In this document: one piece after another, positions 8,583 through 46,945 of the stretch | How positions within the stretch are numbered: the first letter of the stretch is position 1 | Layout of the letters: each line of letters starts with the position of its first letter | Virus record (IMG/VR): IMGVR_UViG_3300035208_005701 | DNA: 64,000 bases | Source of the DNA: a virus | Lineage: Duplodnaviria; Heunggongvirae; Uroviricota; Caudoviricetes | Direction: 5' to 3' (one strand) | The notes under the pieces: generated by a model | Told to the model about the DNA's origin: nothing | Database searches by the model: none | Seen by the model: the letters and a program-made list of their open reading frames with translations, nothing else | Made by a program: the position numbers and the translations under genes

Positions 8583-9589
8583 TTGATAAAATAAACATTG
8601 CCAATTTATTGTTGACTAGAAGATGCAATTTATCTTGTAACTATTGTAGAATAGTGAAAGATATACCAGAAGTGTCAGAATATCCGTTAATGAACCATTA
8701 TAAAGAAAATGAATTATCCTCTGATAAATGGATAGAAATTATTTCTAGATTGAAGAAAAACAATCCAAATATTTTCTTAGTAATTTATGGAGGAGAACCT
8801 TTTTTATATAATGGATTAAGCGATGTAATAAATTATTGCCATTCTAATTCTGTTTATTATACAGTTATTAGTAATAATACAGACGGAATTCAAAAAAGAA
8901 TAGAAAAAGTTAGACAAGAAATTGGCGGTGTTTTTAAAGGGTTTACATCATCTGTAGACCCTTTAATTTTTTCTTCTTCTAATCAAACTTCAGATGAAGC
9001 AGAAAAAAGTTATAAAGGTTTTAATAGATTATTAGAAATGAAAAAAAGTGGAAAAGCAGAAGATGTAGTTGCTGAAATTACAGTTACTAAATATAGTATT
9101 CAATATTTATATCAATTAATTAGAACATTATCTGATAATGGAATATATTCATCAGTTACTGTTATTGATAAACAAAAAACTAAATATTATGATTTTTCTA
9201 CTGTTGATGATGAAGATTTATTAGTTCAAAAAAATAATGGTGTTAGAAACGAATTTGATAAAATTCAAAAAGATGATTCTTTATTAATTCATATTCCAAA
9301 AATGTTAGATCAAATGTATGATGATTTACCATATAATATGAAATGTACTTTAAAAGAAAATGTGCATAACGTCACAATAGATGCAGATGGAAGTTTCAGA
9401 TTATGTTTAAGAATTAGAGGTGTAGATATTCCCAAAGTAAAATTAGATAATATTATAGATGTAAATGGGAATATTCAAAAGGAAGTTAAAGAATCTATTA
9501 ATAAAGATTACGATAATTATTGTCGTAATTGCTTATGGACATGTATGTATTTTTCAGATAAATTTAGTGATAATATTTTAAATCACTAA
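8579..9589 (+). CDS. Radical SAM enzyme with a C-terminal Cys-rich (SPASM/twitch-like) region
   Basis: RRCNLSCNYCRI (Cx3Cx2C) near the N-terminus, GGEPFL SAM-binding motif, and C-terminal cysteines (CLRIRG...CRNCLWTC). Confidence 0.7.
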   Translation: MIDKINIANLLLTRRCNLSCNYCRIVKDIPEVSEYPLMNHYKENELSSDKWIEIISRLKKNNPNIFLVIYGGEPFLYNGLSDVINYCHSNSVYYTVISNNTDGIQKRIEKVRQEIGGVFKGFTSSVDPLIFSSSNQTSDEAEKSYKGFNRLLEMKKSGKAEDVVAEITVTKYSIQYLYQLIRTLSDNGIYSSVTVIDKQKTKYYDFSTVDDEDLLVQKNNGVRNEFDKIQKDDSLLIHIPKMLDQMYDDLPYNMKCTLKENVHNVTIDADGSFRLCLRIRGVDIPKVKLDNIIDVNGNIQKEVKESINKDYDNYCRNCLWTCMYFSDKFSDNILNH

Positions 9590-10057: not shown

Positions 10058-12316
10058 ATGAGCAAAGAATATTCATATAAAGATATTAAAGTTCTTAGTG
10101 AATTAGATCATATCAGATTAAACCCTGGTTTGTATATCGGGGAACTTAAAAATCCAAATCATCTTTGTTTCGAATTGTTAGATAATTCATTAGATGAAAG
10201 TATTCCTGGTTATGCAACAATAGTGGGAATAGTAATTAATACTCAAGAGGGGACAATTTCTGTATTAGATAATGGTAGAGGAATCCCTATTGAAAATAAT
10301 ACTATTCCTACTATAGCAACAAAACTTTTTTCAGGTGGTAAATTTGAAAAGAGTGAAGGTGGAAATGCTTATAAAGTTGCTTGTTGGGTTGGTTCTACAT
10401 TAATAAAAACTTTAAGAGGTCCTGTATCTATAGATGAGCTAATGGAAAATCCAGAAGTTCATCATCAGATTATATCACGACAAAAACATAATGGTAGAAA
10501 TTTTTGGAAAGTAGGATATATAAAAAAATGTCATTTAACTGGATATAGTAGAATATTTGTCAAAGTTACATTAAGTAATGGTTATACTGAAATGTGTACT
10601 CCTGAACAGTTATGGAGAACTAGAAATGGAAGATGGGTACCTGCTAAAAATTTAGAAGCGGGAACTTCATTGCTCACTTATAATTTAAGTGCTGATAATT
10701 ATTTTCCAACGGCCATGACTAGGAAAGTTACTAAAATTCAAAAAATGAGATTGAAAACCCAACTTCCAATATATGATATAATTGTTCCTTTTGGAAATTC
10801 ATATACTTTGGCTTCTGGGGCGCTTGTTCACAATTCTGGACTGCATGGAATAGGTTTAGTAGCAGTTACAGCATTGTCTGAATGGGTATCAGTCACTGTA
10901 CATAGAAATAATAAAAAGGCATTTTATAAATTTACAAATGCAAAATTAACAGAAGAAAAAATTACAGATTTTACTGAGAAAGCTCCTTATTCTACTCAAA
11001 TAACTTTTAAACCAGATAAAAAAATATTCGAATCTATTAAGTTTGAGGTTGATGCTATTCGACAACGAATGAAATTGGCTAGTGTGCATATTCCTCATTT
11101 GCAATTATTATTAATTGTTGATGGACAAAAAGAAGTAATAAATTGCGATGAGAATGATTATTTTCTACAGACATTGTTAGATGGAAAGAAATCTGAAAAT
11201 TTAACTTCAATTTTTGATATTAAAAAGAAGATTAAAGATGAAGAATTACATATCAAATTTTGTTGGGATTTTGAAGGTTCATCTGCTCCAAAACAAACTG
11301 GTTGTGTCAACTTGTTAAAAGTTGATCAGGGTAATCATATTAATATGGTATATTCTTCAATTAGAGATGTGTTTGAAGAATTAGGAAAAAAAGAGAAAAT
11401 GAAATTTACTGCATCTGATTCATTAGTTGGATTTAGATGTCATACTAGTCTTATGCTTTATAAGCCAGAATATACCTCTCAAACAAAAGAGAAATTGGCA
11501 ACATCTAAAGAAAAATTAAATCATTTATTTGAATCTGTTCAGATTGATATAAAAAAAATACTTAATGATAATCCAGAATTAAAAACTCAATTATTATCAA
11601 GTTTTGAAAATTATAGAAGAAGAATGGAGACAGGTAGAAGTATTGTTAAGACTGATGGAGTAGTTACTAGATTTAGCACTATTTCGGATTCTAAGTTGAG
11701 AGATTGTACTTCTAATTCTACGACTCAAACAGAATTATTCGTGACTGAAGGAACTAGTGCATCTGGATCTTTAATCCAATGTAGAGATCCGAGATATCAT
11801 GGAGTATTAGGATTAAAAGGAAAAATTCCAAATTTAGCTATGGCTGGAAAAGATGAATTGAAAAATAAAGAAATAGTGGAAATTATAAATGCACTTGGAA
11901 CTGGTATAGAACCGCATTTTAATTATCAAGGTCTGCGTTATGGAAAATGTATTTTTGCTTGCGACGCAGATGGAGATGGTTGCGCAAGATATGACTCTTT
12001 GATATATCTAAAAAATAAAAACGAACAAATACTAATAAAAGAATTAAAAGATCTTGTAGATAATAAAGATTATTTTAAAGATCATTTAATTTTAGGATAT
12101 AATGAAGAAGATAAAAAGTTCACATGGACTGAAATTATAAAAATATGGCCTTATAAAATATTTTCTGAATGGATAGATATAATATTGGAAAATGGACAAA
12201 TTATATCATTAACTCAAGACCATTTGGTTTTAACTAATAGAGGTTATATTAGAGCAGATGAATTAAATCAAGAGGATATTATAATAGATGCAGAAGAGTT
12301 TAGAGAAATTAGATAA
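10058..12316 (+). CDS. Type II topoisomerase ATPase plus Toprim (GyrB-like / T4 gp39-60-like) N-terminal polypeptide. It carries a contiguous mini-intein and ends in a split-intein N-fragment
   Basis: GHKL motifs ELLDNSLDE and DNGRGIP. ...SGGKFEKSEGGNAYKVA | intein | SGLHGIGLVAVTALS matches GyrB GGKFD..SYKVSGGLHGVG. Toprim ELFVTEGTSASGS. ...DADGDG is then followed by CARYDSLIYL... instead of the expected SHI..LLTFF. Confidence 0.8.
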   Translation: MSKEYSYKDIKVLSELDHIRLNPGLYIGELKNPNHLCFELLDNSLDESIPGYATIVGIVINTQEGTISVLDNGRGIPIENNTIPTIATKLFSGGKFEKSEGGNAYKVACWVGSTLIKTLRGPVSIDELMENPEVHHQIISRQKHNGRNFWKVGYIKKCHLTGYSRIFVKVTLSNGYTEMCTPEQLWRTRNGRWVPAKNLEAGTSLLTYNLSADNYFPTAMTRKVTKIQKMRLKTQLPIYDIIVPFGNSYTLASGALVHNSGLHGIGLVAVTALSEWVSVTVHRNNKKAFYKFTNAKLTEEKITDFTEKAPYSTQITFKPDKKIFESIKFEVDAIRQRMKLASVHIPHLQLLLIVDGQKEVINCDENDYFLQTLLDGKKSENLTSIFDIKKKIKDEELHIKFCWDFEGSSAPKQTGCVNLLKVDQGNHINMVYSSIRDVFEELGKKEKMKFTASDSLVGFRCHTSLMLYKPEYTSQTKEKLATSKEKLNHLFESVQIDIKKILNDNPELKTQLLSSFENYRRRMETGRSIVKTDGVVTRFSTISDSKLRDCTSNSTTQTELFVTEGTSASGSLIQCRDPRYHGVLGLKGKIPNLAMAGKDELKNKEIVEIINALGTGIEPHFNYQGLRYGKCIFACDADGDGCARYDSLIYLKNKNEQILIKELKDLVDNKDYFKDHLILGYNEEDKKFTWTEIIKIWPYKIFSEWIDIILENGQIISLTQDHLVLTNRGYIRADELNQEDIIIDAEEFREIR
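10382..10834 (+). mobile_element. Mini-intein (151 aa, Hint domain only) inserted in the GyrB-like ATPase domain between YKVA and SGLHG
   Basis: Begins with Cys (CWVGSTLIKT) and ends IYDIIVPFGNSYTLASGALVHN followed by the extein Ser. The flanking exteins rejoin into the conserved GyrB KV-SGLHG motif. GC content is visibly higher than in the surrounding sequence. Confidence 0.75.
11981..12313 (+). mobile_element. Split-intein N-fragment (about 111 aa) at the Toprim DxDGxH site, running to the stop of the N-terminal topoisomerase polypeptide
   Basis: The extein ...CIFACDADGDG is followed by Cys-1 (CARYDSLIYL...). Block-B-like LTQDHLVLTNRGYIRADEL (TxxH) sits near the end. The ORF stops without the intein C-terminal blocks. 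Confidence 0.65.
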
Positions 12317-13838
12317 AGTTAAACAGTTTTATCTAAATTATCTCAAGACTAAAAAAAGAGGAATTCTTGCTGCTGTAACTTATAGATTAAAAGATCCAGA
12401 GATAAAAACAACTTTGGATCTTTTAGTTCCTCTTCCATATAATTTATCTCTTAAATTTCATATGTGGTGTATTAGGAATTATGAATTGCCGAAATGTTTA
12501 TATTGTACCAAAGATTTACTTTTTAATTTGAAAAAAGGATTTTATACAAGTACCAAGCATAGATGCTGCTTCAAACCTCCTTATAATAATATTTATAGCA
12601 ATTATGAACAATTTTTCAATATGCCATCTTTAATGAAAGTTGATTATAAAACGTTCATACAACGACCAAATATTAAAAAAATAATTACTGAATTTTTAGA
12701 AAAATTTCCATATTTTTCTGATTATAAAACTCATATTTTCTCTCTATTTTCTTATGTTAAAAATTATGATGATTTATCATCTATACCTTATTGTAGAATT
12801 TGTGGAAAAAATAAAGTTTCTATTAATTTAACTTTATTATCCAAAAATAAGATATATTTTAATGATTATTGTTTTTCTTGTGTTCAAAAGTCAACTATGG
12901 AAAAAAGTATATCTTCAATAAAACAAAAATACAATGTAACAAATGTCAGTCAATTAGATTTTGTTAAGAAGAAGAAAGAGCAAACTAGTTTAAAAAATTA
13001 TCATGTAAAAAATCCAATGCAATCTGAAATAGTTAGATCTTCTCATAAACAAACATGTATTGATAGATATGGTGTTGAAAACGTATCTCAATCTGATCAA
13101 ATTAAAGTTCAAAAAAAAGAAACAATTTTAAAAAATTTCGGAAATTGGGAAACATTTATACAACATACATTAGGTGCATTTTGTAAAAGTAAAGGAGTTG
13201 AAAATGTATCTCAATTGAAAGAAGTAAAAGATAAAAAGATTTTAACATTTTTAAATCATTATGGAGTTGAAAATTGTTTTCAATCAGAAGAGATAAAATC
13301 TCAATCTAAATTAACATGTTTGAATAGATATGGATATGAATATTATTCACAAAGTATAGAAGCAAGAAGAAATACGAGAGAGAGATTATTAAATCAAATT
13401 GAAATTCAATTTTTGAACGGTGAACCTCTTGTTCCCACAATAGGGATATTTGAAAGAGAGTGTTTTAATTATTTAGAAAGAGAATGTAATATTCAAATTC
13501 TTAGAAATTCTAGATGTATAGGTTATTTTGTTGATGGATTTATACCATATATAAATTTATGCATAGAGTTTGATGAGGAGTTTCATTTTGATAAATATGG
13601 AAATTTATTAGATGTAGATTTAAGAAGACAAAAAGAAATTCAAGATTATCTATCATGTGAATTTTTTAGAATTTCTAAAAAGAATTGGAATGTAAATAGA
13701 GAAAGAGTAGTTACTAATTTTAAAGAAATAATGGAAAAATGTTCAAATAAAATATCAGATAATAATATTAAAGTCATTTTCGAAAATAGACAATACAGAA
13801 TAATTAGGAGTAACTATGAAGATAAGGAAAATAAATAA
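12288..13838 (+). CDS. Free-standing putative homing endonuclease between the two intein halves, with a PD-(D/E)xK / Vsr-like nuclease core at the C-terminus
   Basis: Inserted exactly between IntN and IntC in a different frame. Tandem modules of about 30 aa (RYGVENVSQSDQIK / KGVENVSQLKEVK / YGVENCFQSEEIK / RYGYEYYSQSIE). C-terminal GYFVDGFIPYINLCIEFDEEFH resembles the D...(E/D)xK 'IEVDG..H' nuclease signature. Confidence 0.5.
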   Translation: MQKSLEKLDKVKQFYLNYLKTKKRGILAAVTYRLKDPEIKTTLDLLVPLPYNLSLKFHMWCIRNYELPKCLYCTKDLLFNLKKGFYTSTKHRCCFKPPYNNIYSNYEQFFNMPSLMKVDYKTFIQRPNIKKIITEFLEKFPYFSDYKTHIFSLFSYVKNYDDLSSIPYCRICGKNKVSINLTLLSKNKIYFNDYCFSCVQKSTMEKSISSIKQKYNVTNVSQLDFVKKKKEQTSLKNYHVKNPMQSEIVRSSHKQTCIDRYGVENVSQSDQIKVQKKETILKNFGNWETFIQHTLGAFCKSKGVENVSQLKEVKDKKILTFLNHYGVENCFQSEEIKSQSKLTCLNRYGYEYYSQSIEARRNTRERLLNQIEIQFLNGEPLVPTIGIFERECFNYLERECNIQILRNSRCIGYFVDGFIPYINLCIEFDEEFHFDKYGNLLDVDLRRQKEIQDYLSCEFFRISKKNWNVNRERVVTNFKEIMEKCSNKISDNNIKVIFENRQYRIIRSNYEDKENK

Positions 13839-13926
13839 AAGAAAATTAAATAATATAAATTTTTGCGACTTAACTACAGGAACTGGAAATTTTGTATTAG
13901 CAAATGGAAATGTTGTTATTCATAAT
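13816..13926 (+). mobile_element. Split-intein C-fragment (37 aa) at the start of the C-terminal topoisomerase polypeptide
   Basis: MKIRKINKRKLNNINFCDLTTGTGNFVLANGNVVIHN followed by S. The length and pattern match DnaE-type IntC sequences (...HNFALKNGFIASN). Confidence 0.65.
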
Positions 13927-14280
13927 AGTCATATTACTACATTATTAATGATTGTATTTTTAAAACTAGTCCCTGAATTAATAAAAAAAGGTCACATTTT
14001 TACAGCAGAGATGCCTCTTTATGGTGCTCAAGTTGGAAAAGTATTTACTCCTTTTTATACAGATGAGGATGTAGAAAAATTTAAATTATCTAATCCTAAT
14101 GTCAAATTACAAAGATATAAAGGTTTAGGTGAAATGAATCCAGATCAATTGAAAGTTTGTTTATTAGATTCTTCTAGACGATTGCATAAAATTGAATTTC
14201 CTGATAATAGCGAAGATCTTTTAAAACTTATGATAGATGCTGATCTCAAAAGACAATTGGTACAAAGGGAGGAAGAATGA
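13816..14280 (+). CDS. IntC plus the C-terminal part of the GyrB-like topoisomerase II subunit (completes the Toprim and tail)
   Basis: After HN: SHITTLLMIVF (GyrB SHIRTLLLTFF) ... YKGLGEMNPDQL (GyrB KGLGEMNP.QL). Confidence 0.75.
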   Translation: MKIRKINKRKLNNINFCDLTTGTGNFVLANGNVVIHNSHITTLLMIVFLKLVPELIKKGHIFTAEMPLYGAQVGKVFTPFYTDEDVEKFKLSNPNVKLQRYKGLGEMNPDQLKVCLLDSSRRLHKIEFPDNSEDLLKLMIDADLKRQLVQREEE

Positions 14281-15584
14281 AAATTAGCGTGCCGAAATTG
14301 TATTCTGAGTATGGGAGATATATAAATAAATTCAGATCTTTTCCTTTAATTCATGACGGATTGAAAATAGTGGAACGTCGTCTGCTTTATTCTTTATATG
14401 AAGTATCACGAGATCATTATACTAAAGCTGCAAAAGTGATAGGACATTGTATAGGAAATTATCACGGACATGGAGATCAGAGCGCATATGGATCACTGGT
14501 GGGTCTTGTTCAAAATAATTTAGCTGATGGACAAGGTAACTGGGGTTCTGATATCGGAATAGAATCATGTGATCCAGCAGCTATGAGATATACAGAAGTA
14601 AGATGCAGCAAAGATGTTTTGAAATTGGCTTTTGAATTTATCAAGTATGTAGATTTTGAGGCATTAGAACTTGATTCTGAACCAGTATACTTACCTACTA
14701 AATTACCATTTTGTCTTTTACAAAAATATTATTCTCAAGGAATAGGATTTGGGTTTAGAACATATATTCCATGTTATAAAATTAATGATTTAATTAAAAG
14801 ATTAAAGTGGTTATTAGGTGAATCTAAAACTGAACCTATAATTAAACCAATAAGTGATTGTGATTTATTATCTACTAACAATGATTATAAAGAACTTCTT
14901 ACTACTGGAAAAGGCAAGATAGAATTACAAGGTAAGAGTTTCATTGATGGAAAATCAGTTGTAATTCAATCGATTCCTCCCGCTAAAACTTTTCTTAAAA
15001 TAATTCAATTTTTAGAAAAAGATATTACTGCAAAAAATATAGGGTGGACAGATGAATCTAATGGTAGAGATGGAACTAAAGTAAGATTTACTATTTTAAG
15101 ACAAAGAGGATACTCTGTAGAATCATTACAAGATAAAATACAGAAAATGTTAAAAAGTACTATTACATTTGAATGTAATATGTGTGATACGGATGGAAAA
15201 GTAATTTTGGTTCCTCCAGATCAAATGTTACTTACTACTTATAAAATGTATAAAGATACAATAGAAAAATACTTAAAAGATAATATTCAAAATCTGGATA
15301 ATAAAATTCAAGAGATGAATATTATTAAAAAGATCAAGATTATATTACCGGATCTACTTAAAACTTATCCAGATGATCCAGATAAGATAATAGAAAATAT
15401 ATGTAACAAACTTCAAATAACTTCTGATATAGTAAAGGATTTATTTGAAAAATACAATATCAATAGACTGTTAAAAGTAAAAGTTGATATTGAAAAAGTA
15501 GAAACAGACAAACAAGTATTTGTGGACAATTTAAATAATTTAGTAAATTATATCTGGACTGAAAAATATGAAAGGGGATTCTAA
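14277..15584 (+). CDS. Type II topoisomerase DNA breakage-reunion subunit (GyrA N-terminal-like / T4 gp52-like)
   Basis: DGLKIVERRLLYSLYE..., IGNYHGHGDQSAYGSLVGLVQ (GyrA KYHPHGD), and the active-site region AMRYTEVR (GyrA AMRYTE.R with the catalytic Tyr). Confidence 0.8.
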   Translation: MKISVPKLYSEYGRYINKFRSFPLIHDGLKIVERRLLYSLYEVSRDHYTKAAKVIGHCIGNYHGHGDQSAYGSLVGLVQNNLADGQGNWGSDIGIESCDPAAMRYTEVRCSKDVLKLAFEFIKYVDFEALELDSEPVYLPTKLPFCLLQKYYSQGIGFGFRTYIPCYKINDLIKRLKWLLGESKTEPIIKPISDCDLLSTNNDYKELLTTGKGKIELQGKSFIDGKSVVIQSIPPAKTFLKIIQFLEKDITAKNIGWTDESNGRDGTKVRFTILRQRGYSVESLQDKIQKMLKSTITFECNMCDTDGKVILVPPDQMLLTTYKMYKDTIEKYLKDNIQNLDNKIQEMNIIKKIKIILPDLLKTYPDDPDKIIENICNKLQITSDIVKDLFEKYNINRLLKVKVDIEKVETDKQVFVDNLNNLVNYIWTEKYERGF

Positions 15585-20911: not shown

Positions 20912-21273
20912 GGGGGAGTAAAGGTTTCGACGTGGTAAATTAAGTATGAATTGCATGTAGAGGATGATCGTTGGCCTCTTAAATAATCGATTAAAAAATA
21001 GACGAAAATTCTATTGATTTTTCTCCATTATCTCTTGCTGCATAAGTGAGACCAATTCTTAGGGATATTTCGACTTGAGAATTGACATAATTGAAATTGC
21101 AGGTTGAATAATTCGTTAAATTGTATTCAAATAAGAATCTTTAAATTAACTAGAATCAATATATAATAGTTTGTTGAATATATAGATTTTAAATTATTAA
21201 TACGAACTAAACATGTGAATGAAGTTTATATAGTATTTATTACGGATCTGGGTTCGACTCCCAGCTCTTCCAT
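20912..21273 (+). ncRNA. ssrA: tmRNA (SsrA-like), one-piece, about 362 nt
   Basis: 5' GGGGGAG-taaaGGTTTCGACG (compare GGGGCUGAUUCUGGAUUCGACG). 3' T-arm ctggg-TTCGACT-cccag, then ctcttcc pairing with the 5' gggggag, and discriminator A. Internal tag frame 21001..21045 is gac gaa aat tct att gat ttt tct cca tta tct ctt gct gca TAA (..DENSIDFSPLSLAA*), preceded by aaaaaaTAGac as in the E. coli resume context. Confidence 0.8.
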
Positions 21274-21280
21274 TTATAAT

Positions 21281-22285: not shown

Positions 22286-23170
22286 ATGAATCCAGTAAAA
22301 AACAAGTTTTATGTTGATAAAAAAATAAGTTCTACTAATGGCTTAGATTTATGGATGAAGATGGAAGAAAAATCAAAGGAATATATTTCTGATTACAAAA
22401 GTAAATTTGAATCAAAAATAGTTTTTGAAAAATCAAAATGGTATTGTTTATGTTTTTTAAGTGATTTACATTTTGGATCGGATGGAGTTAATTATAAAAA
22501 GGCTAGAGAGGATGCAGAATTAATAGGGAGTAATCCTTATACATTTTCTGTATTAGGAGGTGATTATATTGATAATTTTATTAGTGCTAAAATAATAGAA
22601 CCATTAATACAAGCAACTACTACTCCATCTCAACAAATAACTTTATTTGAAGAATATTTAAAATTTTTTAATAAAAATATAATGTTAATGATAAGTGGAA
22701 ATCATGATGACAGAACAAAGAAAATAACAGGTTTGGATTTTTTAAAGGTGATAGCTGATAAAGAAAAAATTTTATATTCACCTGATGTTCATATATTTTC
22801 TGTGAAAAATGGAAATGCTAATTATACTCTTTCAATAAGACATTCTACTAGATTTTCATCTATGTATAATTATACACATTCTGTTAAACAATCTAGAAGA
22901 TTCGGAGAACATGAATATGATATAGGAGTAATATGTCATCAGCATACTCCAGCAGTTGAAGATTGTTATATACAAGGTAATCATTTTATAGCTATTAGAA
23001 CTGGAAGTTATAAAGTTGCAGATTCTTATTGTAAAAAGACAGATTTTCCAGAATCTAAACCAATATCTCCTTGTGTAATTTTAGCACCAAATGAAAAGAA
23101 AATGATTTCAATGAAATATTTAGATGAAGCTATTGATTTTGTAACTTATAAAAATAAAAAAGGAAAATGA
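22286..23170 (+). CDS. Calcineurin-like metallophosphoesterase
   Basis: Motifs DLHFG, GGDYID, GNHDD, and H.H later (HQHTP). Confidence 0.6.
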   Translation: MNPVKNKFYVDKKISSTNGLDLWMKMEEKSKEYISDYKSKFESKIVFEKSKWYCLCFLSDLHFGSDGVNYKKAREDAELIGSNPYTFSVLGGDYIDNFISAKIIEPLIQATTTPSQQITLFEEYLKFFNKNIMLMISGNHDDRTKKITGLDFLKVIADKEKILYSPDVHIFSVKNGNANYTLSIRHSTRFSSMYNYTHSVKQSRRFGEHEYDIGVICHQHTPAVEDCYIQGNHFIAIRTGSYKVADSYCKKTDFPESKPISPCVILAPNEKKMISMKYLDEAIDFVTYKNKKGK

Positions 23171-23678: not shown

Positions 23679-24482
23679 ATGAAATTTATTTATGCTACTG
23701 ATTTACATGGAAATCATGAAAAATTTAGAACAATTTTAAATTTTGCTAAAGAATATGATTATAAAATAATTCATTTAGGTTCAGATTTTTTACCAAAGAA
23801 TCATAATATTTTACAAACTCAATTAAATTTTATAGAAAACTTTTTTTGTAAGTTTGTTAAAACATGTGGAGATTTTGGAATAGAACTTTTTTATCATTGG
23901 GGAAATGATGATACATTATATTCATTATATAATGCCCCATTAATGATTAGTAATAAAAATAAAGCTATTTCATTTATTAAAAATTATAAACTTATATCTT
24001 ATAGTTATGTTCCAGATTATCCATTTTTACTTAAAGATTTTTGCAAATCAGATTTTGATAATTGGACTCATCCAAAATATTTTTTTGGTACTCCGGAATA
24101 TTCTGATGAAAATGGATTTCATTTAATAGATGATATTAGTAAATTTTTTAAAGATCGAGGAACAATAGAGGAAGATCTAAAAAATTTAAAAGTAGATAGG
24201 AATACTATATGTTCATTTCATTGTCCTCCTTATGGATTAGATTTGGATGTATGTAATGATGGAAGACGAGTTGGATCTAAATCTATATATGATTGGATTG
24301 AAAAAGAACAACCTTTATTAGTTTTAAGTGGTCATATTCATGAAAATTATGAAATGACTAAGACATGGAAAAACTACATTAAAAATACTTTAGTAATCCA
24401 ACCAGGTCAAAGAGGAGCTTGTAGATTTGTAATTATAGAAATTAAAGGAGATGAAATAGAATCTAGTTTAGTTGAAATTTGA
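23679..24482 (+). CDS. Calcineurin-like metallophosphoesterase
   Basis: DLHGNHEK, GSDFL, GNDDT, GHIHEN. Confidence 0.6.
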   Translation: MKFIYATDLHGNHEKFRTILNFAKEYDYKIIHLGSDFLPKNHNILQTQLNFIENFFCKFVKTCGDFGIELFYHWGNDDTLYSLYNAPLMISNKNKAISFIKNYKLISYSYVPDYPFLLKDFCKSDFDNWTHPKYFFGTPEYSDENGFHLIDDISKFFKDRGTIEEDLKNLKVDRNTICSFHCPPYGLDLDVCNDGRRVGSKSIYDWIEKEQPLLVLSGHIHENYEMTKTWKNYIKNTLVIQPGQRGACRFVIIEIKGDEIESSLVEI

Positions 24483-25003: not shown

Positions 25004-25846
25004 ATGTACCAAATAAATAGTGATTACTTATATAGAATAGGTTCTTCTCATTCTGTATGTCAAGATTATTGCATATCTGGTAATTTAAGACAAATGATGC
25101 CTTATATTATTATTGCAGATGGATGTTCAAGTTCTCCTCAAGTAGATGTTGGATGTAGAATTTTAGTTCATTGTGCTAAATGGCAATTGGATGTATCTTT
25201 AATATATAATCAACATACAGAACATCTTGATTCATTTGCTGATATAATGGGGGATAGAATAATTAAAGATGCTGATATTATAAAGAGAAATCTAAATTTA
25301 CATGATCAAAGTTTAGATTCTACTTTATTAATTGCATTTATATATCATGGAAATATTAATATTATAACTTACGGAGATGGTAATTTTCTAATAAAGAGAC
25401 GAGATGATATCATAACCAATACTAGATTATCATACTCTAGTGGTGCCCCATATTATTTAAATTATCTTACAAATAAAGAAAGAAATGAAAGATATAAAAA
25501 GGAATTTAAAGATTCGGTATTTGAATCTGAAGTGATAATTAATAAATCTTCTACTAAAATTGAATACCCTTTTAGTCACCATTTAACATATCAATGTCCA
25601 ATTCAAGATGTTGAATTTCTTTTATTAGCTAGTGATGGATTGACTACTTGGGAAGATAAATTTCATAATTTTATTTATATTCCACCTCAAGAATTCTTGA
25701 ATTTTAAAAATACTACAGGGGAATTTGTAACAAGAAGAATAAACAGAATAACAAAAGATATGAAAGAAAGAAATATTAGTCATTACGATGATTTAAGCAT
25801 AGCTGGATTTCATATTCAGGAGGTTGATAATGGAATATCAGATTAA
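25004..25846 (+). CDS. PP2C-like Ser/Thr phosphatase (tentative)
   Basis: IIADGCSSS...VG and LLASDGLTTWED resemble the PP2C Asp/Gly-rich metal-binding motifs. Confidence 0.5.
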   Translation: MYQINSDYLYRIGSSHSVCQDYCISGNLRQMMPYIIIADGCSSSPQVDVGCRILVHCAKWQLDVSLIYNQHTEHLDSFADIMGDRIIKDADIIKRNLNLHDQSLDSTLLIAFIYHGNINIITYGDGNFLIKRRDDIITNTRLSYSSGAPYYLNYLTNKERNERYKKEFKDSVFESEVIINKSSTKIEYPFSHHLTYQCPIQDVEFLLLASDGLTTWEDKFHNFIYIPPQEFLNFKNTTGEFVTRRINRITKDMKERNISHYDDLSIAGFHIQEVDNGISD

Positions 25847-27545
25847 AGATATTCAAACAAAATCAATTAATTCAGTATCATTGACAAATGCTCATTTTAT
25901 AACTGAAGGTGGAGAAGGAAAAGTATTTGGAAAAAATGATACAATATATAAAATTTATATAGAACCTAAAAAAATGATTTCTCTATCTAAAATACATGAA
26001 CTTTCTTATTTAGATAAAGATAATATATTAAAACCATTAAATATTATACTTGATAAAAAAGGTATACAAATCGGATTTACTATGAAATGGTTAAAAAATT
26101 CTACTCCGATATGTAAATTATTTACAAGTGATTTTTGGACTAGATTTAATATCAATAATAAGATTATTTCAGAGCTAGTTAAAAATATGATTAATGATAT
26201 TAAATACATTCACAGTAAAAATTGTTTAATAGTAGATGGAAATGAAATGAATTATCTTATAGATTCTAAGAATTTTATTTTTCCATATTTTATTGATGTA
26301 GATAGTTATCAAACTTCTAGTTTTCCAGCAACAGCTATAATGACATCTATTAGAGATTTACATTCAAATACTTTTTCTGAATTAACTGATTGGTTTTCTT
26401 TTGGTATTATTTCTATTCAATTATTTATAGGAATACATCCATTTAAAGGGACTCATCCAGATTATTCTAAAAAAGATTTAGAGAAAAGAATGAAAGATAA
26501 CATTTCTATATTTAATAAAGATGTAAGACTTCCAGCTACTGTTAGAGATTTAAATTGTATTCCAAAAGAATATAAAGATTGGTATATTAAATTATTTGAA
26601 AAGGGAGAAAGATTGCCTCCACCTCAAATAGGAATTGTTACTGTTTCAATAATTAATAAAAAGATTATAAATAATTCAGATTCTTTTAAGATATCATTAT
26701 TTAAAGAAATAGAAAATGATATAGTAAAAATTGATGATGAAGGAAATATTTATTCAAAAATAAAAATTTATATTGATAAAGGAGAATATGATAGTAATGT
26801 AGATTCAGATTTAATTTATTCTATTAAATCTTTTACTCCGATCAAAGTTCATATAAATGAAAAAAAAATGATCTTAGAAAAATTAAATGGTGAAAAAATT
26901 AATTGTATATATGAATGTAATAGTAAAACATTAATAGATAACCATCTTTATATTTTAAATGATGATAAATTATTGGCTATAGAGATAGATGAAATTGGTA
27001 AAACTTTTATTCCAGTAGTTAAAACCTTTTGGAATGTTTTGCCTAATTCTACTAAATTGTATTCTGGAATTATTTATCAAGATATTTTAGGACTTCCATA
27101 TTTCAACTTGCCATATATCTCTAAAAATGGAAATCGAGCATGTATGACTAAGTTAATTAGTGAATTAAAGAAATATAAAATAGTTGAAATGAAGAATGAT
27201 AAAAATGTGATTTTTGTCATTGCTTTTAAAAATGGTAAATATGACAGATTTATTTTTAAAGTCAATGATGATTATTCTGAATATAATTGTCAGAAATTTG
27301 AAGATGTGACATATCATGTTCCGAATTTTGTCACTCTTGATAATGGGGTGGTTGTATCTATTAATGATGATGATCAAGTAGAAATTTTTAGTAGAAGTTT
27401 GTTAAAATCAGATATCAATATAATAGAAGATAAACATATAAATTATAATATGAAATTGTGGAAAAAGGGAGTGAATGTTTTTATAACAGAAGAAAATAGA
27501 ATGTATAATTTTTCAATGAAAAAAAATGAAAGGGAAATAGTATGA
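25830..27545 (+). CDS. Eukaryote-like Ser/Thr protein kinase-like protein
   Basis: IHSKNCLIVDGNEMNYLID (catalytic-loop-like), FIDVDS (DFG-like) and DWFSFGIISIQLFIGIHPF (the APE / D.WS.G region). Confidence 0.55.
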   Translation: MEYQIKDIQTKSINSVSLTNAHFITEGGEGKVFGKNDTIYKIYIEPKKMISLSKIHELSYLDKDNILKPLNIILDKKGIQIGFTMKWLKNSTPICKLFTSDFWTRFNINNKIISELVKNMINDIKYIHSKNCLIVDGNEMNYLIDSKNFIFPYFIDVDSYQTSSFPATAIMTSIRDLHSNTFSELTDWFSFGIISIQLFIGIHPFKGTHPDYSKKDLEKRMKDNISIFNKDVRLPATVRDLNCIPKEYKDWYIKLFEKGERLPPPQIGIVTVSIINKKIINNSDSFKISLFKEIENDIVKIDDEGNIYSKIKIYIDKGEYDSNVDSDLIYSIKSFTPIKVHINEKKMILEKLNGEKINCIYECNSKTLIDNHLYILNDDKLLAIEIDEIGKTFIPVVKTFWNVLPNSTKLYSGIIYQDILGLPYFNLPYISKNGNRACMTKLISELKKYKIVEMKNDKNVIFVIAFKNGKYDRFIFKVNDDYSEYNCQKFEDVTYHVPNFVTLDNGVVVSINDDDQVEIFSRSLLKSDINIIEDKHINYNMKLWKKGVNVFITEENRMYNFSMKKNEREIV

Positions 27546-28351
27546 CTAAAGATTTATTAAAAACTCATTTAATTATTATTGATCCGCAAAATGATTTTTG
27601 TGATTCAAAAGGTTCATTATTTGTTGGTGGTGCAGATAAAGATATGAATAAACTTTCAAAAATGATAAATAGAATTGGACATAAATTAGATGATATACAT
27701 GTCACTATGGATAGTCATCATTTAATAGATGTTGCTCATCCTATTATGTGGATTGATTCTAAAGGAAATCATCCAACTCCATTCACAATAATTACAGTTA
27801 ATGATCTCAAATCTGGAAAATGGACAACGACTAATCCAATGTTTCAATCAAGAATGATTTCATATTGTGAAACTCTTGAGAAAAATTCTAGATATCCTTT
27901 GTGCATATGGCCTCCACATTGTCTTATTGGAAGTTGGGGTCATAATATATATCCAGAATTATATGAAGCTATAACTAAGTGGGAAGAATCTTGTTTTGCA
28001 ATGGTTGATTATGTTACTAAAGGAAGTAATATTTGGACTGAACATTATAGTGCTGTTCAAGCAGATGTTCCAGATGCAACTGATCCAGGTACTATGTTAA
28101 ATACAAGATTAATTCAAACATTACAAGAAGCTGATATTATACTTATTGCAGGGGAAGCATTATCTCATTGTGTAGCAAATACAATTAGAGATATTGCTAA
28201 TAATTTTGGAGAAGAAAATATCAAGAAATTTTTACTTCTTGAAGATTGTTGTTCTTCAGTTACAGGATTTGATCAATTAGGAATTGATTTTATAAAAGAA
28301 ATGACTAAGAGAGGAATGAAAATATCCAAATCTACAGAATTTATGAAATAA
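27542..28351 (+). CDS. Isochorismatase-family cysteine hydrolase, nicotinamidase (PncA)-like
   Basis: THLIIIDPQNDFCDSKGSLFVGGA matches the PncA hallmark (V)D.QNDFC..GGSL.V.G. Later ALSHCVANT matches the catalytic-Cys region. Confidence 0.65.
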   Translation: MTKDLLKTHLIIIDPQNDFCDSKGSLFVGGADKDMNKLSKMINRIGHKLDDIHVTMDSHHLIDVAHPIMWIDSKGNHPTPFTIITVNDLKSGKWTTTNPMFQSRMISYCETLEKNSRYPLCIWPPHCLIGSWGHNIYPELYEAITKWEESCFAMVDYVTKGSNIWTEHYSAVQADVPDATDPGTMLNTRLIQTLQEADIILIAGEALSHCVANTIRDIANNFGEENIKKFLLLEDCCSSVTGFDQLGIDFIKEMTKRGMKISKSTEFMK

Positions 28352-28386
28352 TTAAAAAATTAAATTAAAAAGAAAGGATTTATTAA

Positions 28387-29133
28387 ATGCCAAAGTTAAT
28401 AGCAGATAAGGGAATGGAACAATTAAAAATAGATGGTGGTGGAAATTTTCAATTTTCAGCTACTCGATTGGATGATCTTGGAGCTACAGAATATACTCTT
28501 GTTACTATAGCTGTAGACAAATCTGGAAGTGTAAATTCATTTGTTAAAGAACTTTTAAAAGCTATCGTAATGATAATAGAAGCATGTAAAAAATCACCGA
28601 GAGCAGAAAATTTAATGATTCGTCTTATAACTTTTAATTATGAATTAGAAGAAATTCATGGTTTTAAATTATTAAGTACTATTGATACAAAGGATTATAT
28701 TGAACCAAATTGTAGTAGTCAAACAGCATTATTTGATGCTACTTATAGTTCAATTGGAGCAACATTAACTTATGCAAAAAATCTTATTGATCAAGATTTT
28801 AATGCAAATGGAATTTGTTTTATTATTACAGATGGATGTGATAATGCTTCAAAGACAACTCCTTCTATGATAGCAGAAATGACCAATGATGCTTTTAAAA
28901 ATGAGGAAATTGAATCATTGATAACTGTACTTGTTGGAATTGGTGCACCTGATAATGCAGTGAAATCTGAATTAGATAAATTTTTTAATGTTGCTAGATT
29001 AACTCAATATGTTGATATTGGTGATGCTACTCCACAAAAGTTAGCTAAACTTGCTGCATTTGTAAGTAAGTCTATTAGTTCTCAAAGTAGTGCTCTTGGT
29101 AGCGGAGCTGCTAGTCAACCACTAAGTTTTTAA
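28387..29133 (+). CDS. von Willebrand factor A (vWA) domain protein
   Basis: MIDAS motif TIAVDKSGSVNSF (DxSGS) and a later Thr/Asp pattern. Confidence 0.6.
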   Translation: MPKLIADKGMEQLKIDGGGNFQFSATRLDDLGATEYTLVTIAVDKSGSVNSFVKELLKAIVMIIEACKKSPRAENLMIRLITFNYELEEIHGFKLLSTIDTKDYIEPNCSSQTALFDATYSSIGATLTYAKNLIDQDFNANGICFIITDGCDNASKTTPSMIAEMTNDAFKNEEIESLITVLVGIGAPDNAVKSELDKFFNVARLTQYVDIGDATPQKLAKLAAFVSKSISSQSSALGSGAASQPLSF

Positions 29134-29141
29134 TTAATTTA

Positions 29142-29185
29142 AAACTGGAGAGGATGTAAATATAATCTTCTCCAGTTTATTTTAC
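29142..29185 (+). terminator. Rho-independent terminator (aaactggagagga ... tcttctccagttt, then tattttac)
   Basis: 13-bp stem with one mismatch, then a T-run, 8 nt after the vWA stop. Confidence 0.55.
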
Positions 29186-35471: not shown

Positions 35472-35536
35472 ATTTTAAAATTGGTAAATTTGCAAAGATT
35501 CAATTCAAACAAATTTATTTTTAAAGGAATTTGTTA

Positions 35537-36670
35537 ATGAAAATTGGAAATTTCAATCTAGATATTAATCATATTTCTCAATTTAATGAATTATTGAAAT
35601 CTAAAGAAGAATTAAAATTAAAAAAGGAACTAATAGGAGATGTTGAATTTACTAGTATTTGTTATATGATTGCTCTTCCAAATACATTTGACTCTTTTTT
35701 AAGTAGAGAATGTAGAGGAAGTTTATTTGATTCTAGTGGAAAAATAATATCTCGACCATTTCATAAATTTTTTAATATAGGTGAAAAGGAATTTACTCAA
35801 CCTCATTTATTAAAAGAAATAATTGGATATAAAGAAAAAGTAGATGGGAGTTTAGCTGTTCCAGTACTAGTTAAAAATAAAATTATTTGGAAAACTAAAA
35901 AATCTTTCTATTCAGATGTTGCAAAATATATTAATAAATTTTATTATCCAGAAGATCCATTAGAAGATATTTATAATCCAGATAAAAAATGTAGCCCTAA
36001 TGATACTAAATTAGATTGGACTATTAGAGATTTAATTTCGGAAAATAAAACTCCATTATTTGAATATGTCTCAATCAATAATAGAGTCGTTATTAAGCAT
36101 TTTAAAGAAGAATTGATTTATCTAAATACTAGAGATAATGTTCATGGATATTATTCCAGTATGAGCCATTTTCTTGATGATAAGTTTAATTTAGAAGTTT
36201 TTATAAATGATACTATTAAAAAAGAAGAAATTGAAGGATATGTTTTATATGATGATAATGATTTTTATAAATTAAAGACTAAATGGTATGTAGATAGACA
36301 TAAAGCTATGGATATGATTTCAGTTAGAGATTTAATTGATATAATATTGCAAGATAAATTAGATGATATAATTTCAATCCTTAATAATCTCAATTGCATT
36401 GAAAGAATAAAAATATATCAAAAATATTCAGAGGAAGTATTAAAATATATGATATATTTCGAAACGTTAGCTAAAGAGAAATTATTATATTATGATACTT
36501 TTGATTTAAAAAAATATGCTTCAAATATACAAACAGAAAACCCACCTATGAAATCTTTATTATTTGCAATGAAAAGAAAAGATAATTATGAATTAACTTT
36601 GAAAAAAATTATTGGAAATTATTTTAAAGAAAAGTATAAAGGAAAAGTTATAAAATTCAACGATGAATAA
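35537..36670 (+). CDS. RNA ligase, T4 Rnl1 (RnlA)-like
   Basis: Nucleotidyltransferase motif I YKEKVDGSLAV (T4 RnlA KEDGSL); size 378 aa, close to RnlA. Confidence 0.65.
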   Translation: MKIGNFNLDINHISQFNELLKSKEELKLKKELIGDVEFTSICYMIALPNTFDSFLSRECRGSLFDSSGKIISRPFHKFFNIGEKEFTQPHLLKEIIGYKEKVDGSLAVPVLVKNKIIWKTKKSFYSDVAKYINKFYYPEDPLEDIYNPDKKCSPNDTKLDWTIRDLISENKTPLFEYVSINNRVVIKHFKEELIYLNTRDNVHGYYSSMSHFLDDKFNLEVFINDTIKKEEIEGYVLYDDNDFYKLKTKWYVDRHKAMDMISVRDLIDIILQDKLDDIISILNNLNCIERIKIYQKYSEEVLKYMIYFETLAKEKLLYYDTFDLKKYASNIQTENPPMKSLLFAMKRKDNYELTLKKIIGNYFKEKYKGKVIKFNDE

Positions 36671-37330: not shown

Positions 37331-37346
37331 TCAAATGAGGAGTATT

Positions 37347-38219
37347 ATGCCAAAAATAATTATTTGTAAAGGGCTTCCGGCATCAGGAAAATCTACTTGG
37401 GCAAGAGAACAATGCAAAAATGATTATAAAAGAATCAATAAAGATGACCTTAGAAAAATGTGTCATGATAATATTTATAATGGAAAAAAAGAAAAATTTA
37501 TTTTGGCGATGAGAAATATATTTATTTATGAATCATTGATGATGGGATATAATATCATTATAGATGATACTAATTTAAATCCTGCACATGAAGAAAGTAT
37601 AAGACAACTTGTGAAATCTTATTGTGATGACCAAAATTGCTCAGTTTCAATAGAAGTGAAATTTTTTGATACTCCATTAGAAGAATGTATAATAAGAGAT
37701 GATAAAAGACCTATCGGAGAAAAAGTTGGAGAAAAAGTTATTAGAGATATGTATAACAAGTATCTTAAGAAATCTGTTGAATATATTAAAGATACTAATT
37801 TAAAAAATTGTATAATAGTTGATATTGATGGGACATTAGCTATTCGAGCAGATAGAAACCAATATGATGAATCTAAAGTTTATTTGGATAATCTTAATAC
37901 AAATATTTCAGATATTGTTAATTCTTATAAGAAAAATAATCCAGATATTTATGTTATGATTTTTTCAGGAAGAAAAGATTCATGTAAAGAAATGACAATT
38001 AAATGGTTAAATAAATATCAAATAATGTTTGATGAAATTCATATGAGATCCGTAGATGATAATAGAAAAGATTCAATAGTTAAAAAAGAATTATTTGAAA
38101 CTTATATAAGAAATAAATATAATTGTTTGTTTGTTTTAGATGATCGTAATTCAGTAGTAAATATGTGGAGAAATGACTTGGGTCTTCAATGTTTACAAGT
38201 AGCAGAAGGAGATTTTTAA
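37347..38219 (+). CDS. pnk: Polynucleotide 5'-kinase/3'-phosphatase, T4 Pnk-like
   Basis: N-terminal [21 protein letters not shown] (T4 Pnk [21 protein letters not shown]). C-terminal HAD-like phosphatase IVDIDGTLA (DxDGT). Confidence 0.8.
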   Translation: [290 protein letters not shown]

Positions 38220-41682: not shown

Positions 41683-42765
41683 ATGTACAAATTTAAAGAA
41701 AATAAAGAGTTCAAAATAGTTTCTTCTTCAGATTATAATTATGTATTTAATAAGTTAAATGGACAATTTGCAAGATGGGGAAAGACAAAAGAAGATGATC
41801 CGCAACAGGCTCCAGCTCCAGAGATACTTGATTTAGAAATAAGTTCTGGAGGAGATTGTTTAGGTATGTGTCCTTTCTGCTATAAAGGTAATGGTGGAAC
41901 GCAAGAAACTTTTAATATGACTTTCGAAGATTTTAAAATTATATTTGATAAAATGCCAAAGTTTTTAACTCAGATAGCTTTTGGTATTATGAATATTGGA
42001 ACTAATCCAGACTTTTTTAAAATGATGGAATACTCTAGAGAACATGGAGTTATTCCAAATTATACTTGTCATGGATTAGATGTTACTAAAGAATATGCTG
42101 AACGAACATCTAAATTATGTGGAGCTGTTGCTGTTAGTATAATTAATAAAGAAAAAACTTTTGAATCTATAAAAATGTTTGCTGATGAAGGAATGACTCA
42201 AGTAAATATTCATTATATGGTTTCAAAAGAACGATATGATGAAGCTTTTAAATTAATTGATGAAATAGCAAAAAGAAAGATTCCTGTCAATGCTGTTGTA
42301 TTTTTGCAGTACAAGTCTAAAGGAAGAGGTACTGATAAATTCTCTCCTGTTTGTAGTGTTGAAGATTATAAGAAATTAATTGAACATGCTACAAATGCAG
42401 ATGTAAGAATTGGTTTTGATTCTTGTTCTTGTCCATTGTGGTACAAAACTATAGAGGGAACAATAGAGGAAAAGAAGTCTGTAATGGGTGAACCTTGCGA
42501 AGCAGCATGTATGAGCTCTTATATTAATTGTAAAGGAGAATTCTACCCATGTTCTTTTACTGAAGGAACTACCGGATGGGAAAATGGGATAGATGTATTT
42601 TCTGCTACTGATTTTATTAAAGATATATGGAATCATCCAAGAGTAAAAGATTGGAGAATTAGATTATTGGGTACTACTAATAACTGTAATTGTAAGTTCA
42701 AAAAGATATGTAGAAAATGTCCTATATATGATATAACAGATTGTAAAAATATAAAGGATAAATAA
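41683..42765 (+). CDS. Radical SAM enzyme with a C-terminal SPASM-like Cys-rich domain
   Basis: CLGMCPFCY (Cx3Cx2C plus aromatic) after ...LEISSGGD. C-terminal auxiliary-cluster-like cysteines: DSCSCPLWY ... CEAACMSSYINCKGEFYPCSF ... NNCNCKFKKICRKCPIYD. Confidence 0.8.
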   Translation: MYKFKENKEFKIVSSSDYNYVFNKLNGQFARWGKTKEDDPQQAPAPEILDLEISSGGDCLGMCPFCYKGNGGTQETFNMTFEDFKIIFDKMPKFLTQIAFGIMNIGTNPDFFKMMEYSREHGVIPNYTCHGLDVTKEYAERTSKLCGAVAVSIINKEKTFESIKMFADEGMTQVNIHYMVSKERYDEAFKLIDEIAKRKIPVNAVVFLQYKSKGRGTDKFSPVCSVEDYKKLIEHATNADVRIGFDSCSCPLWYKTIEGTIEEKKSVMGEPCEAACMSSYINCKGEFYPCSFTEGTTGWENGIDVFSATDFIKDIWNHPRVKDWRIRLLGTTNNCNCKFKKICRKCPIYDITDCKNIKDK

Positions 42766-46559: not shown

Positions 46560-46772
46560 TTCAAAAATTTTTTGGAATAAATTATACAAGGAGAAACTAT
46601 GAAGAAACAACTATTAAATTTATTTGTGAAACATCATAGTCTACTTAGTATGATTCTTGGTGGAGGAATATTTCTACCTAGAATAATTCAGGAATAGAGT
46701 TGAAATTACTTGTTCCTGAAAGAAACCTTTTAGGAAGAAGCTAAAAGGAAGTTTAATTTTTTATATTATTAT

Positions 46773-46845
46773 CTGGGTGTGGGATAGTTGGTAATCTGTC
46801 CGGTCTGGAACCGGAAGATCAGAAATTCAAATCTTCTTACCCAGA
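46773..46845 (+). tRNA. tRNA-Pro (anticodon TGG), 73 nt, with C33 instead of U33 and a weak last T-stem pair
   Basis: Hand-folded. Acceptor ctgggtg / tacccag (C1:G72) with discriminator A73, both tRNA-Pro identity features. D-arm ggat-agttggta-atct. Anticodon arm tccgg-tcTGGaa-ccgga. T-arm agaaa-ttcaaat-cttct. Confidence 0.55.
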
Positions 46846-46945
46846 TATTTATTTTGCATCTATAGAGTAGTATTTGTGATTTCTCATCATAAGGTCTCGA
46901 TGCAATTTTGAGTAAACTCTTATTTAATTTAAAGGATATATTTAT

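Follow-up and report, generated by a model that had tools for sequence, protein, structure and literature searches.

What does a nicotinamidase-like gene do in a phage genome, and why is it followed by a gene for a von Willebrand factor A (vWA) protein? The question is raised by a stretch of 64,000 nucleotides (nt) of one viral genome (Caudoviricetes; IMG/VR record IMGVR_UViG_3300035208_005701), hereafter the window, to which all counts given as in the window refer. The original prediction, made from the sequence alone, had noticed a PncA-like enzyme next to a vWA protein and proposed a part in the metabolism of nicotinamide adenine dinucleotide (NAD+), possibly as counter-defence; the positions it gave for the two open reading frames (ORFs) were exact. 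We found that the two genes are one half of a conserved and widespread four-gene cassette, whose other half, a PP2C-type phosphatase and a eukaryote-like Ser/Thr kinase, lies upstream in the same operon and had been overlooked (Table 1). It is the cassette, rather than the enzyme-vWA pair, that is the more interesting feature. The reading that we cautiously favour is that the enzyme feeds NAD+ salvage under the control of a kinase-phosphatase-vWA switch, sustaining NAD+ in a huge phage.

The class of the enzyme is confirmed by several comparisons. The motifs quoted in support of a nicotinamidase/isochorismatase signature are all present (DPQNDFC at residues 14-20, GSLFVGG at 24-30 and SHCVANT at 208-214), and the protein matches the Pfam family Isochorismatase (PF00857) with 36.7 bits, the gathering score being 27. 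When compared by sequence with the PDB, the protein comes closest to nicotinamidases (yeast Pnc1, 2h0r; Mycobacterium tuberculosis PncA, 3pl1; and 29iv; E about 1e-5), and nicotinamidases are again what a profile of the enzyme family retrieves from the PDB. The AlphaFold model, built from a 40-sequence alignment (pLDDT, for predicted local distance difference test, 93.2), and the Pfam match both place the enzyme in the isochorismatase-like (cysteine hydrolase) fold of the canonical PncA/Pnc1 enzymes (EC 3.5.1.19), and the 17 top Foldseek matches of the model in the PDB are all nicotinamidases, with E values from 3.6e-15 (2wta, the best) to 1e-9. The completeness of the Asp-Lys-Cys catalytic triad had been named beforehand as the refuting test, and the triad is complete: D14, K160 and C210 align (HMMER) to D8, K96 and C138 of M. 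tuberculosis PncA and to their equivalents in yeast Pnc1, and are kept in 376, 378 and 373 of the 378 family members, respectively. The metal site, an Asp-x-His plus the His of a WPxHC motif, separates nicotinamidases from other isochorismatase-like hydrolases. It is found here as D57, H59 and H126 (the last one within WPPHC), which align on the ligands of the M. tuberculosis and yeast enzymes and occur each in 378/378 members, with H66 in 355/378. The GxAxxxC oxyanion motif of PncA/Pnc1 is shared too, and the flanking F19 and W123 are retained in the family as in true nicotinamidases.

A profile search that distinguishes PncA from other hydrolases of this fold had also been proposed, and here the outcome was divided: nicotinamidases came top in the PDB and the metal site is in place, but the NCBIfam nicotinamidase equivalog (NF008623) gives 36.2 bits against a cut-off of 174. 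Members of the family have 260-270 amino acids (aa), compared with about 180-215 for PncA/Pnc1, and have about 60 extra, conserved residues inserted between the DxH of the metal site and WPPHC. We assign the enzyme, by sequence, to a distinct, divergent and long subfamily of nicotinamidase type. The family comprises 811 clusters at 50% identity (E<=1e-30) and thousands of sequences. A few of its members are apparently eukaryotic. One of them (P0492, 1629 aa) is built of ankyrin repeats, an ion-transport domain of TRP-like type and a pair of nicotinamidase-like domains, of which the second has no catalytic Cys; another (P0361) is a tandem duplication and a third (P0383) has an unknown N-terminal domain of 240 aa. 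The 'PncA-like' gp275 of phage G (PMC12484599) was considered as a close relative as well; since it is missing from the four tblastn matches to the enzyme in a GenBank phage collection (50,697 records), it cannot be closely related to this subfamily.

The four genes occupy positions 25004-29183 as a single operon of translationally coupled or closely spaced genes. The end of the PP2C gene overlaps the start of the kinase gene, the kinase stop codon overlaps the start codon of the enzyme in an ATGA junction, and a Shine-Dalgarno-like GAAAGGA stands 8 nt upstream of the vWA gene. The suggestion that the enzyme and vWA genes share a terminator held: there is no hairpin within the 35-nt gap that separates them, and a strong one (29142-29178; -20.2 kcal/mol, z -5.17, with 0/200 shuffles folding equally well) is found just 3' of the vWA stop codon. 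An Rfam scan of the window detected a transfer-messenger RNA (tmRNA) and three tRNAs only, and no riboswitch for NAD+ or any other ligand.

Table 1. Features of the four-gene operon in the window
Feature	Position	Strand	Evidence
PP2C-type Ser/Thr phosphatase, 280 aa, first operon gene	25004..25846	+	Pfam PP2C_2 (PF13672)
Eukaryote-like Ser/Thr kinase with C-terminal all-beta domain, probably a beta-propeller	25824..27545	+	Pkinase score below gathering, invariant residues, model
Nicotinamidase-type (PncA-like) metal-dependent cysteine hydrolase, 269 aa, distinct long subfamily	27542..28351	+	Pfam, PDB, model, residues
TerY/YegL-like vWA protein, 248 aa, with MIDAS and conserved Ser/Gln-rich C-terminal tail	28387..29133	+	Homologue alignment
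Intrinsic terminator ending the four-gene operon	29142..29183	+	Hairpin, then UUUAUUUU

Is this arrangement peculiar to one phage? An IMG/VR search with the enzyme yielded 31 viral loci, and when the plus-strand ORFs of 34 viral or metagenomic loci were clustered, the enzyme was present in all 34, the kinase and the vWA protein in 31 each and the PP2C in 28. The next-commonest family appeared in 8 of these loci, so that no neighbours are conserved apart from the four cassette families; the same holds across about 110 non-redundant loci, taken from huge phages as well as bacteria. In most cases the genes are ordered enzyme-vWA-PP2C-kinase, of which the window shows a cyclic permutation (PP2C-kinase-enzyme-vWA) that retains both gene pairs; the spacers between enzyme and vWA genes are mostly 8-70 nt. 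A census of cellular genomes (one genome per GTDB species) gave more than 600 matches to the enzyme. Among the best 80 of these loci all four genes were found in 35 (32 of them in the usual order), the enzyme with PP2C only in 6, as in Competibacteraceae, and the enzyme alone in 29. Seventeen of the latter have at least 4.5 kb of flanking sequence on both sides (e.g., Treponemataceae, Craterilacuibacter), from which it follows that the enzyme is able to work without its partners. The stand-alone enzyme is also seen in conserved chromosomal contexts, for example beside methionyl-tRNA synthetase in Treponemataceae, and complete cassettes lie amid ordinary cellular genes in two contigs of Desulfobacterales metagenome-assembled genomes (MAGs) and in a Rhodoferax contig of 348 kb, with the caveat that many of the 'genome' loci are MAG contigs and possibly mis-binned phages. 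The GC content of the carriers goes from 26% (the window) to 72%. The enzyme is the best-conserved member of the cassette (45-73% identity, compared with 28-45% for the kinase). Other neighbours in the window were considered as members and rejected: neither the metallophosphoesterases upstream nor GNAT and SPFH downstream are conserved, SPFH recurring in one other locus only. A link to 7-deazaguanine DNA modification, suggested by PTPS and radical-SAM genes in the window and by the carboxamide that 7-amido-7-deazaguanine carries, was discarded because those genes are not conserved beside the cassette.

A way to approach the role of the enzyme is to look at the genes that join the cassette in its relatives. 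We queried 111 non-redundant loci with the proteins of a Variovorax island described below. The nicotinate phosphoribosyltransferase PncB is present in 16/111, either inside the cassette (L015, L026, L037), directly after the kinase (L046, L089, L094, L103) or directly after a stand-alone enzyme (L106, L119, L114, L122). NAD+ synthase (NadE) occurs in 8/111 and NAD kinase (NadK) in 3/111. In one locus (L094) NadK, NUDIX, enzyme, vWA, PP2C, kinase, PncB and NadE follow each other on one strand. The NUDIX protein (about 220 aa) accompanies 33/111 loci, typically just upstream and often divergent, and matches over its full length (E 8e-40) the PDB entries 3gz5/3gz6, which we take to be the NrtR of Shewanella oneidensis. 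NrtR, which is related to Nudix proteins and responds to ADP-ribose, represses operons for NAD salvage such as pncA-pncB (PMC2330246), a Preiss-Handler arrangement that these relatives resemble in adjoining PncB, NadE and an NrtR-type regulator. The same work lists NrtR-regulated operons of unknown function, 'nrtX-nrtY', in Streptomyces, Frankia, Proteus and Hahella (PMC2330246, Table 1). What usually comes after the enzyme here, a vWA gene together with a PP2C-kinase pair, is lacking in canonical pncA operons.

The island used for the queries belongs to plasmid 2 of the cultured Variovorax sp. SRS16, where the annotation (PGAP) names the enzyme 'cysteine hydrolase' and its vWA partner matches the cassette profile with E 4e-98. 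On their flanks the two genes have two NUDIX genes, one gene with a macro domain, a nucleoside 2-deoxyribosyltransferase (NDT)-like gene and NAD kinase. At a distance of about 21 kb, beyond insertion sequence (IS) elements, PP2C, a kinase homologue and pncB lie on one strand, followed by NADAR, NAD+ synthase and a further NUDIX gene. It is IS3 and IS21 elements that divide the cassette into two parts, and the whole region (L124/L128; 605-647 kb of the record) is a dense NAD+/ADP-ribose island with four NUDIX and two AlkB genes. Among phages, the GenBank collection holds 13 records with a PncB homologue and four with the enzyme, and LR756500 and LR756511 have both. Since PncB, NadE, NadK and an NrtR-type regulator join the cassette in relatives, a link of the enzyme to NAD+ salvage gains support by association. 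With the nicotinamidase machinery intact and PncB, NadE and NrtR recurring as partners, deamidation of nicotinamide to nicotinate would be its most likely reaction.

The three partner proteins are of types that occur together elsewhere. In the vWA protein the residues of the metal ion-dependent adhesion site (MIDAS; D44, S48, T113 and D149) are invariant across 44 homologues, as expected from the vWA MIDAS protein originally reported. The Joint Genome Institute (JGI) labels homologues 'YegL', and of the 44 homologues 13 match VWA (PF00092) and 11 VWA_2 in Pfam; the protein of the window itself has no Pfam match, no vWA structure was recovered from the PDB when it was searched with a profile of the homologues, and an hhalign comparison with Escherichia coli YegL was weak (E 0.018, probability 2.6%). 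Its tail (residues 225-248, FVSKSISSQSQALGTG.PSQPL.F) is Ser/Gln-rich and highly conserved in the homologue alignment, part of it aligns with the Ser-rich C terminus of E. coli YegL, and it may serve as a phospho-acceptor or docking peptide. The phosphatase matches PP2C_2 with E 1.5e-10 and 41.5 bits (gathering score 24), and the metal-binding Asp motifs (D21, D39-G40, G124-D125-G126, D211-G212 and D262-D263) are retained in at least 90% of 28 orthologues. The kinase has 573 aa if read from TTG 25824 and 571 aa from ATG 25830, the start called by JGI. It scores slightly under the gathering threshold of Pfam Pkinase (E 9.2e-7, 29 bits against 31.7), with G29, G30, K43, D138, N143 and D158, that is, the glycine loop, the catalytic Lys, the catalytic Asp/Asn and the DFG-type Asp, invariant in 47 homologues. 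Its AlphaFold model (pLDDT 89.4) consists of a kinase domain (1-265) and an all-beta domain (288-565), and the top Foldseek matches are to LRRK2 (kinase plus WD40) over about 600-650 columns that span both parts; on this modelling evidence the C-terminal domain is probably a beta-propeller.

The same three protein types form, in one operon, the TerY-P triad (YegL-PphC-YegI in E. coli), described as a defence system (Gao 2020) and proposed to be a metal-sensing phosphorylation switch (PMC11090510). Besides the YegL label of vWA homologues and the partial alignment of the vWA tail with YegL, the kinase resembles YegI (BLASTP, E 7e-6). The resemblance has its limits. TerY-P kinases carry a C-terminal Zn-ribbon when associated with CoCoNuT systems or an OB-fold in defence TerY-P (PMC11090510), whereas the kinase studied here has an all-beta C terminus that aligns with LRRK2 kinase-WD40, in place of a Zn-ribbon, OB-fold or membrane anchor. 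A PADLOC scan of the four proteins returned no TerY-P model at E<=0.01, only weak matches (E about 0.002) to unrelated models, and the neighbours of the cassette gave no system match except for a metallophosphoesterase upstream that hits the candidate PDC-S10. Also unlike TerY-P, the cassette has an obligatory fourth partner, the nicotinamidase-type enzyme, and its neighbours are NAD+ genes instead of restriction or DNA-processing genes.

How might the four proteins work together? The enzyme would deamidate nicotinamide, the base released when NAD+ is cleaved, to nicotinate, which as the substrate of PncB would enter the Preiss-Handler route to NAD+ (PncB, NadD, NadE), the later enzymes being supplied by the host or from elsewhere in the phage genome. 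The vWA protein, PP2C and kinase would together act on the enzyme, gating or scaffolding it, as a TerY-P type of switch based on reversible phosphorylation, with the Ser-rich tail of the vWA protein as candidate phospho-acceptor and the beta-propeller of the kinase as candidate sensor. A huge phage could in this way keep up its NAD+ supply during infection, also after NAD+-cleaving host defences have fired, as NADases release nicotinamide. That the trio acts on the enzyme is suggested by the conserved tail of the vWA protein, by the Competibacteraceae loci in which PP2C is the only partner and by the association of PP2C and kinase with PncB in Variovorax. Our observations are the class of the enzyme, the intactness of its active site, the cassette of four genes and, in relatives, its association with PncB, NadE, NadK and NrtR; we infer from them the substrate, the direction of the regulation and the benefit to the phage, and a role in counter-defence is conceivable along the same lines.

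Several points weigh against this interpretation. The identity of the enzyme to characterised nicotinamidases is just about 20% (Foldseek matches), the score stays far below the equivalog cut-off, and the conserved insert (positions 60-120) could reshape the substrate pocket. Phosphorylation of the enzyme or of the vWA tail is only proposed here. PncB or NadE join the cassette in a minority of loci only, and the original idea of a salvage role, to which PncB, NadE, NadK and NrtR in relatives and PncB in 2/4 enzyme-bearing GenBank phage genomes lend weight, found no partner gene in the window itself. There, the recommended check for Nampt, Nmnat and ADP-ribose pyrophosphokinase was negative, as it was for PncB, NadE, NadD, Prs and NadR/PnuC; no other NAD+ gene was detected by a Pfam scan of ORFs of at least 140 aa (which gave no NAPRTase, CTP_transf_like, Pribosyl-synthetase, NMN-transporter or NadR-type domain) or by tblastn with PncB, NadE, NadK and NUDIX. 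For the enzyme of the window, the further steps would have to come from the host or from regions of the genome beyond the 64 kb. Finally, the cassette is present also in ordinary bacterial contexts, so that counter-defence would be neither its sole nor a necessary role, and it is not a phage-specific weapon. The further suggestion that the enzyme destroys a nicotinamide-derived signal met with nothing in its support.

The divergence of the enzyme leaves room for a different substrate. It might act on or bind a larger nicotinamide compound, such as nicotinamide mononucleotide (NMN), nicotinamide riboside or NAD(P)+ (NADP+ being converted to nicotinic acid adenine dinucleotide phosphate, NAADP), in which case the cassette would be a signalling device and not a salvage one. 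The lid-like insert, the low identity and the score far under the equivalog cut-off are all in line with this, as are the coupling to a sensor kinase and the fusion of eukaryotic members to TRP-like channels (P0492), which recalls the NUDT9-H ligand sensor of TRPM2; choanoflagellate TRPV channels also bear isochorismatase-like domains, of unknown function (preprint 10.64898/2026.06.15.732245). Nevertheless, the metal site that binds the pyridine nitrogen and F19/W123 are those of true nicotinamidases, stand-alone members lie directly upstream of PncB as in canonical pncA-pncB operons, and NrtR-type regulators adjoin, which makes us regard a larger substrate as unlikely.

With nicotinamide as the substrate, the purpose could still be its clearance and not its salvage, relieving the product inhibition of sirtuins, ADP-ribosyltransferases or NAD+-dependent ligases. 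Yeast Pnc1, an enzyme of the same class, activates Sir2 by removing nicotinamide, and this precedent, together with the lack of downstream salvage enzymes in the window and the wealth of ADP-ribose-handling genes (macro domain, NADAR, NUDIX) around the Variovorax copy, speaks for such a function. PncB and NadE as recurrent partners tell against it, and the Pfam scan detected no ADP-ribosyltransferase or sirtuin in the window. We consider clearance quite unlikely as the explanation of the cassette, although clearance and salvage are compatible and do not exclude each other.

It is very unlikely, in our opinion, that the cassette is instead a TerY-P-like system for anti-phage defence or superinfection exclusion with a nicotinamidase-like effector that would, for example, block the reuse of nicotinamide by a competing phage. 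TerY-P triads do serve in defence on their own and are also companions of restriction systems (PMC11090510), jumbo phages bear Ter-type genes proposed to serve in superinfection exclusion (PMC7824862), and the cassette moves between phages and bacteria of widely different GC content. Against these stand the negative PADLOC result for TerY-P, the beta-propeller in place of a Zn-ribbon or OB-fold, the sampled bacterial flanks, which hold signalling and housekeeping genes and not defence islands, and the unusual conservation of the enzyme, unlike that of fast-evolving effectors; moreover, deamidation of nicotinamide is non-toxic and the recurrent partners are NAD+-building enzymes. The notion that an independent auxiliary metabolic gene just happens to adjoin an unrelated PP2C/kinase/vWA signalling unit, for which the 17 well-flanked loci with the enzyme alone might be quoted, is close to refuted by the recurrence of the four genes in most viral loci and in 35 of the best 80 genome loci in fixed order and with short spacers, by the lack of any other conserved neighbour, by the overlapping stop and start codons in the window and by the Variovorax PP2C-kinase pair that travels with PncB.

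Salvage under a phosphorylation switch, the interpretation that we retain, may be compared with the phage systems known to rebuild NAD+ from its breakdown products, namely NARP1, NARP2, NARP3 and the 'NAD-jumbo phages', the latter carrying the Preiss-Handler genes pncB-nadD-nadE (PMC11662467). The cassette shares with them a phage-borne enzyme of this metabolism. It differs from NARP1/2/3 (PMC13464706) in that none of their pairs (Adps/Namat, Nampt/Nmnat and PnuC/NadR) was found in the window and in that entry would be through the deamidation of nicotinamide, and from both NARP and NAD-jumbo phages in its kinase-phosphatase-vWA switch, which is unmentioned in PMC11662467 and PMC13464706. Two surveys by the Aravind group include no isochorismatase-type enzyme or PncA, and the jumbo-phage survey among them no PP2C or TerY either; as these components go unmentioned, the surveys do not describe the cassette. 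Full-text literature searches gave no paper linking a nicotinamidase with vWA, PP2C and kinase, and the four-gene cassette is apparently undescribed.

The remainder of the window provides some context on its origin. It is AT-rich (about 26% GC), with nearly all long ORFs on the plus strand. Multisubunit RNA polymerase beta/beta-prime-like genes, typical of jumbo phages, are found in several pieces (75-2267, 2522-6634 and 59784-62534, plus strand), and these split subunits match the RNA polymerase families of phages in PHROG. The tmRNA is full-length (20912-21275, plus strand; Rfam 105 bits; tag peptide ENSIDFSPLSLAA), and the tRNAs (Pro, Leu and His) are located at 46772-46846, 47188-47270 and 48528-48601. 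In GenBank the phage relatives are only huge phages of 462-595 kb plus one faecal phage fragment of 6.5 kb. A huge phage is a reasonable reading of the window because it combines a phage-type multisubunit RNA polymerase, a tmRNA and tRNAs with relatives in IMG/VR and among the huge phages of the LR7565xx series.

Other genes of the window include GyrB with an intein, GyrA, an RNA ligase with a polynucleotide kinase-phosphatase and HNH endonucleases. GyrB is interrupted: one ORF (10058-12316, plus strand) ends in an intein splicing domain, the next (12288-13838) carries DUF7487, and the C terminus of GyrB resumes in 13816-14280, before GyrA (14277-15584); the interruption looks like an intein with a homing-endonuclease-like insert. 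The RNA repair pair consists of a T4-type RNA ligase and the kinase-phosphatase (35531-36670 and 37335-38219, plus strand), and a copy of the nicotinamidase-type enzyme on a Vibrio megaplasmid also precedes a gene of the RNA ligase family. A ThiF/E1-like protein is encoded at 52486-53136 and radical SAM/SPASM proteins at 41683-42765 and 8579-9589; in a related contig of 223 kb (L001, 1-4813) radical SAM, ThiF and a weak ThiS match stand in one block, and the ThiF and radical SAM genes may belong to a system for peptide modification or to a sulfur-carrier system. Three metallophosphoesterases of the calcineurin-like kind are encoded (22286-23170 and 23679-24482, plus strand, and 53891-54922), none of them conserved with the cassette; the second is the one matching the PADLOC candidate family PDC-S10 (1.3e-9), and in another locus (L003) metallophosphoesterase and NADAR genes lie upstream of the cassette.

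The depletion of NAD+ is a major anti-phage strategy of bacteria, and of the three NAD+-rebuilding pathways described in phages none begins with the deamidation of nicotinamide or is coupled to a signalling switch. The cassette is abundant, occurs in huge phages as well as in diverse bacteria and is linked again and again to PncB, NadE, NadK and NrtR. Should the trio control the enzyme, a TerY-P-like triad, the mechanism of which is still unknown, would for the first time receive a concrete function and output, and NAD+ salvage would prove to be open to post-translational regulation through Ser/Thr phosphorylation. A bolder version, which we put forward tentatively and hold to be rather doubtful, is that the cassette is the switchable core of a fourth phage and bacterial route of NAD+ reconstitution, from nicotinamide through nicotinate, nicotinate mononucleotide (NaMN) and nicotinate adenine dinucleotide (NaAD) to NAD+. 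It would be placed under NrtR/ADP-ribose control in bacteria, and the TerY-P-like module would sense NAD+ cleavage or its products and switch the nicotinamidase on, so that huge phages might outlast abortive infection based on NADases. Were this true, eukaryote-like Ser/Thr phosphorylation would be seen for the first time to gate NAD+ salvage directly in prokaryotes and their viruses.

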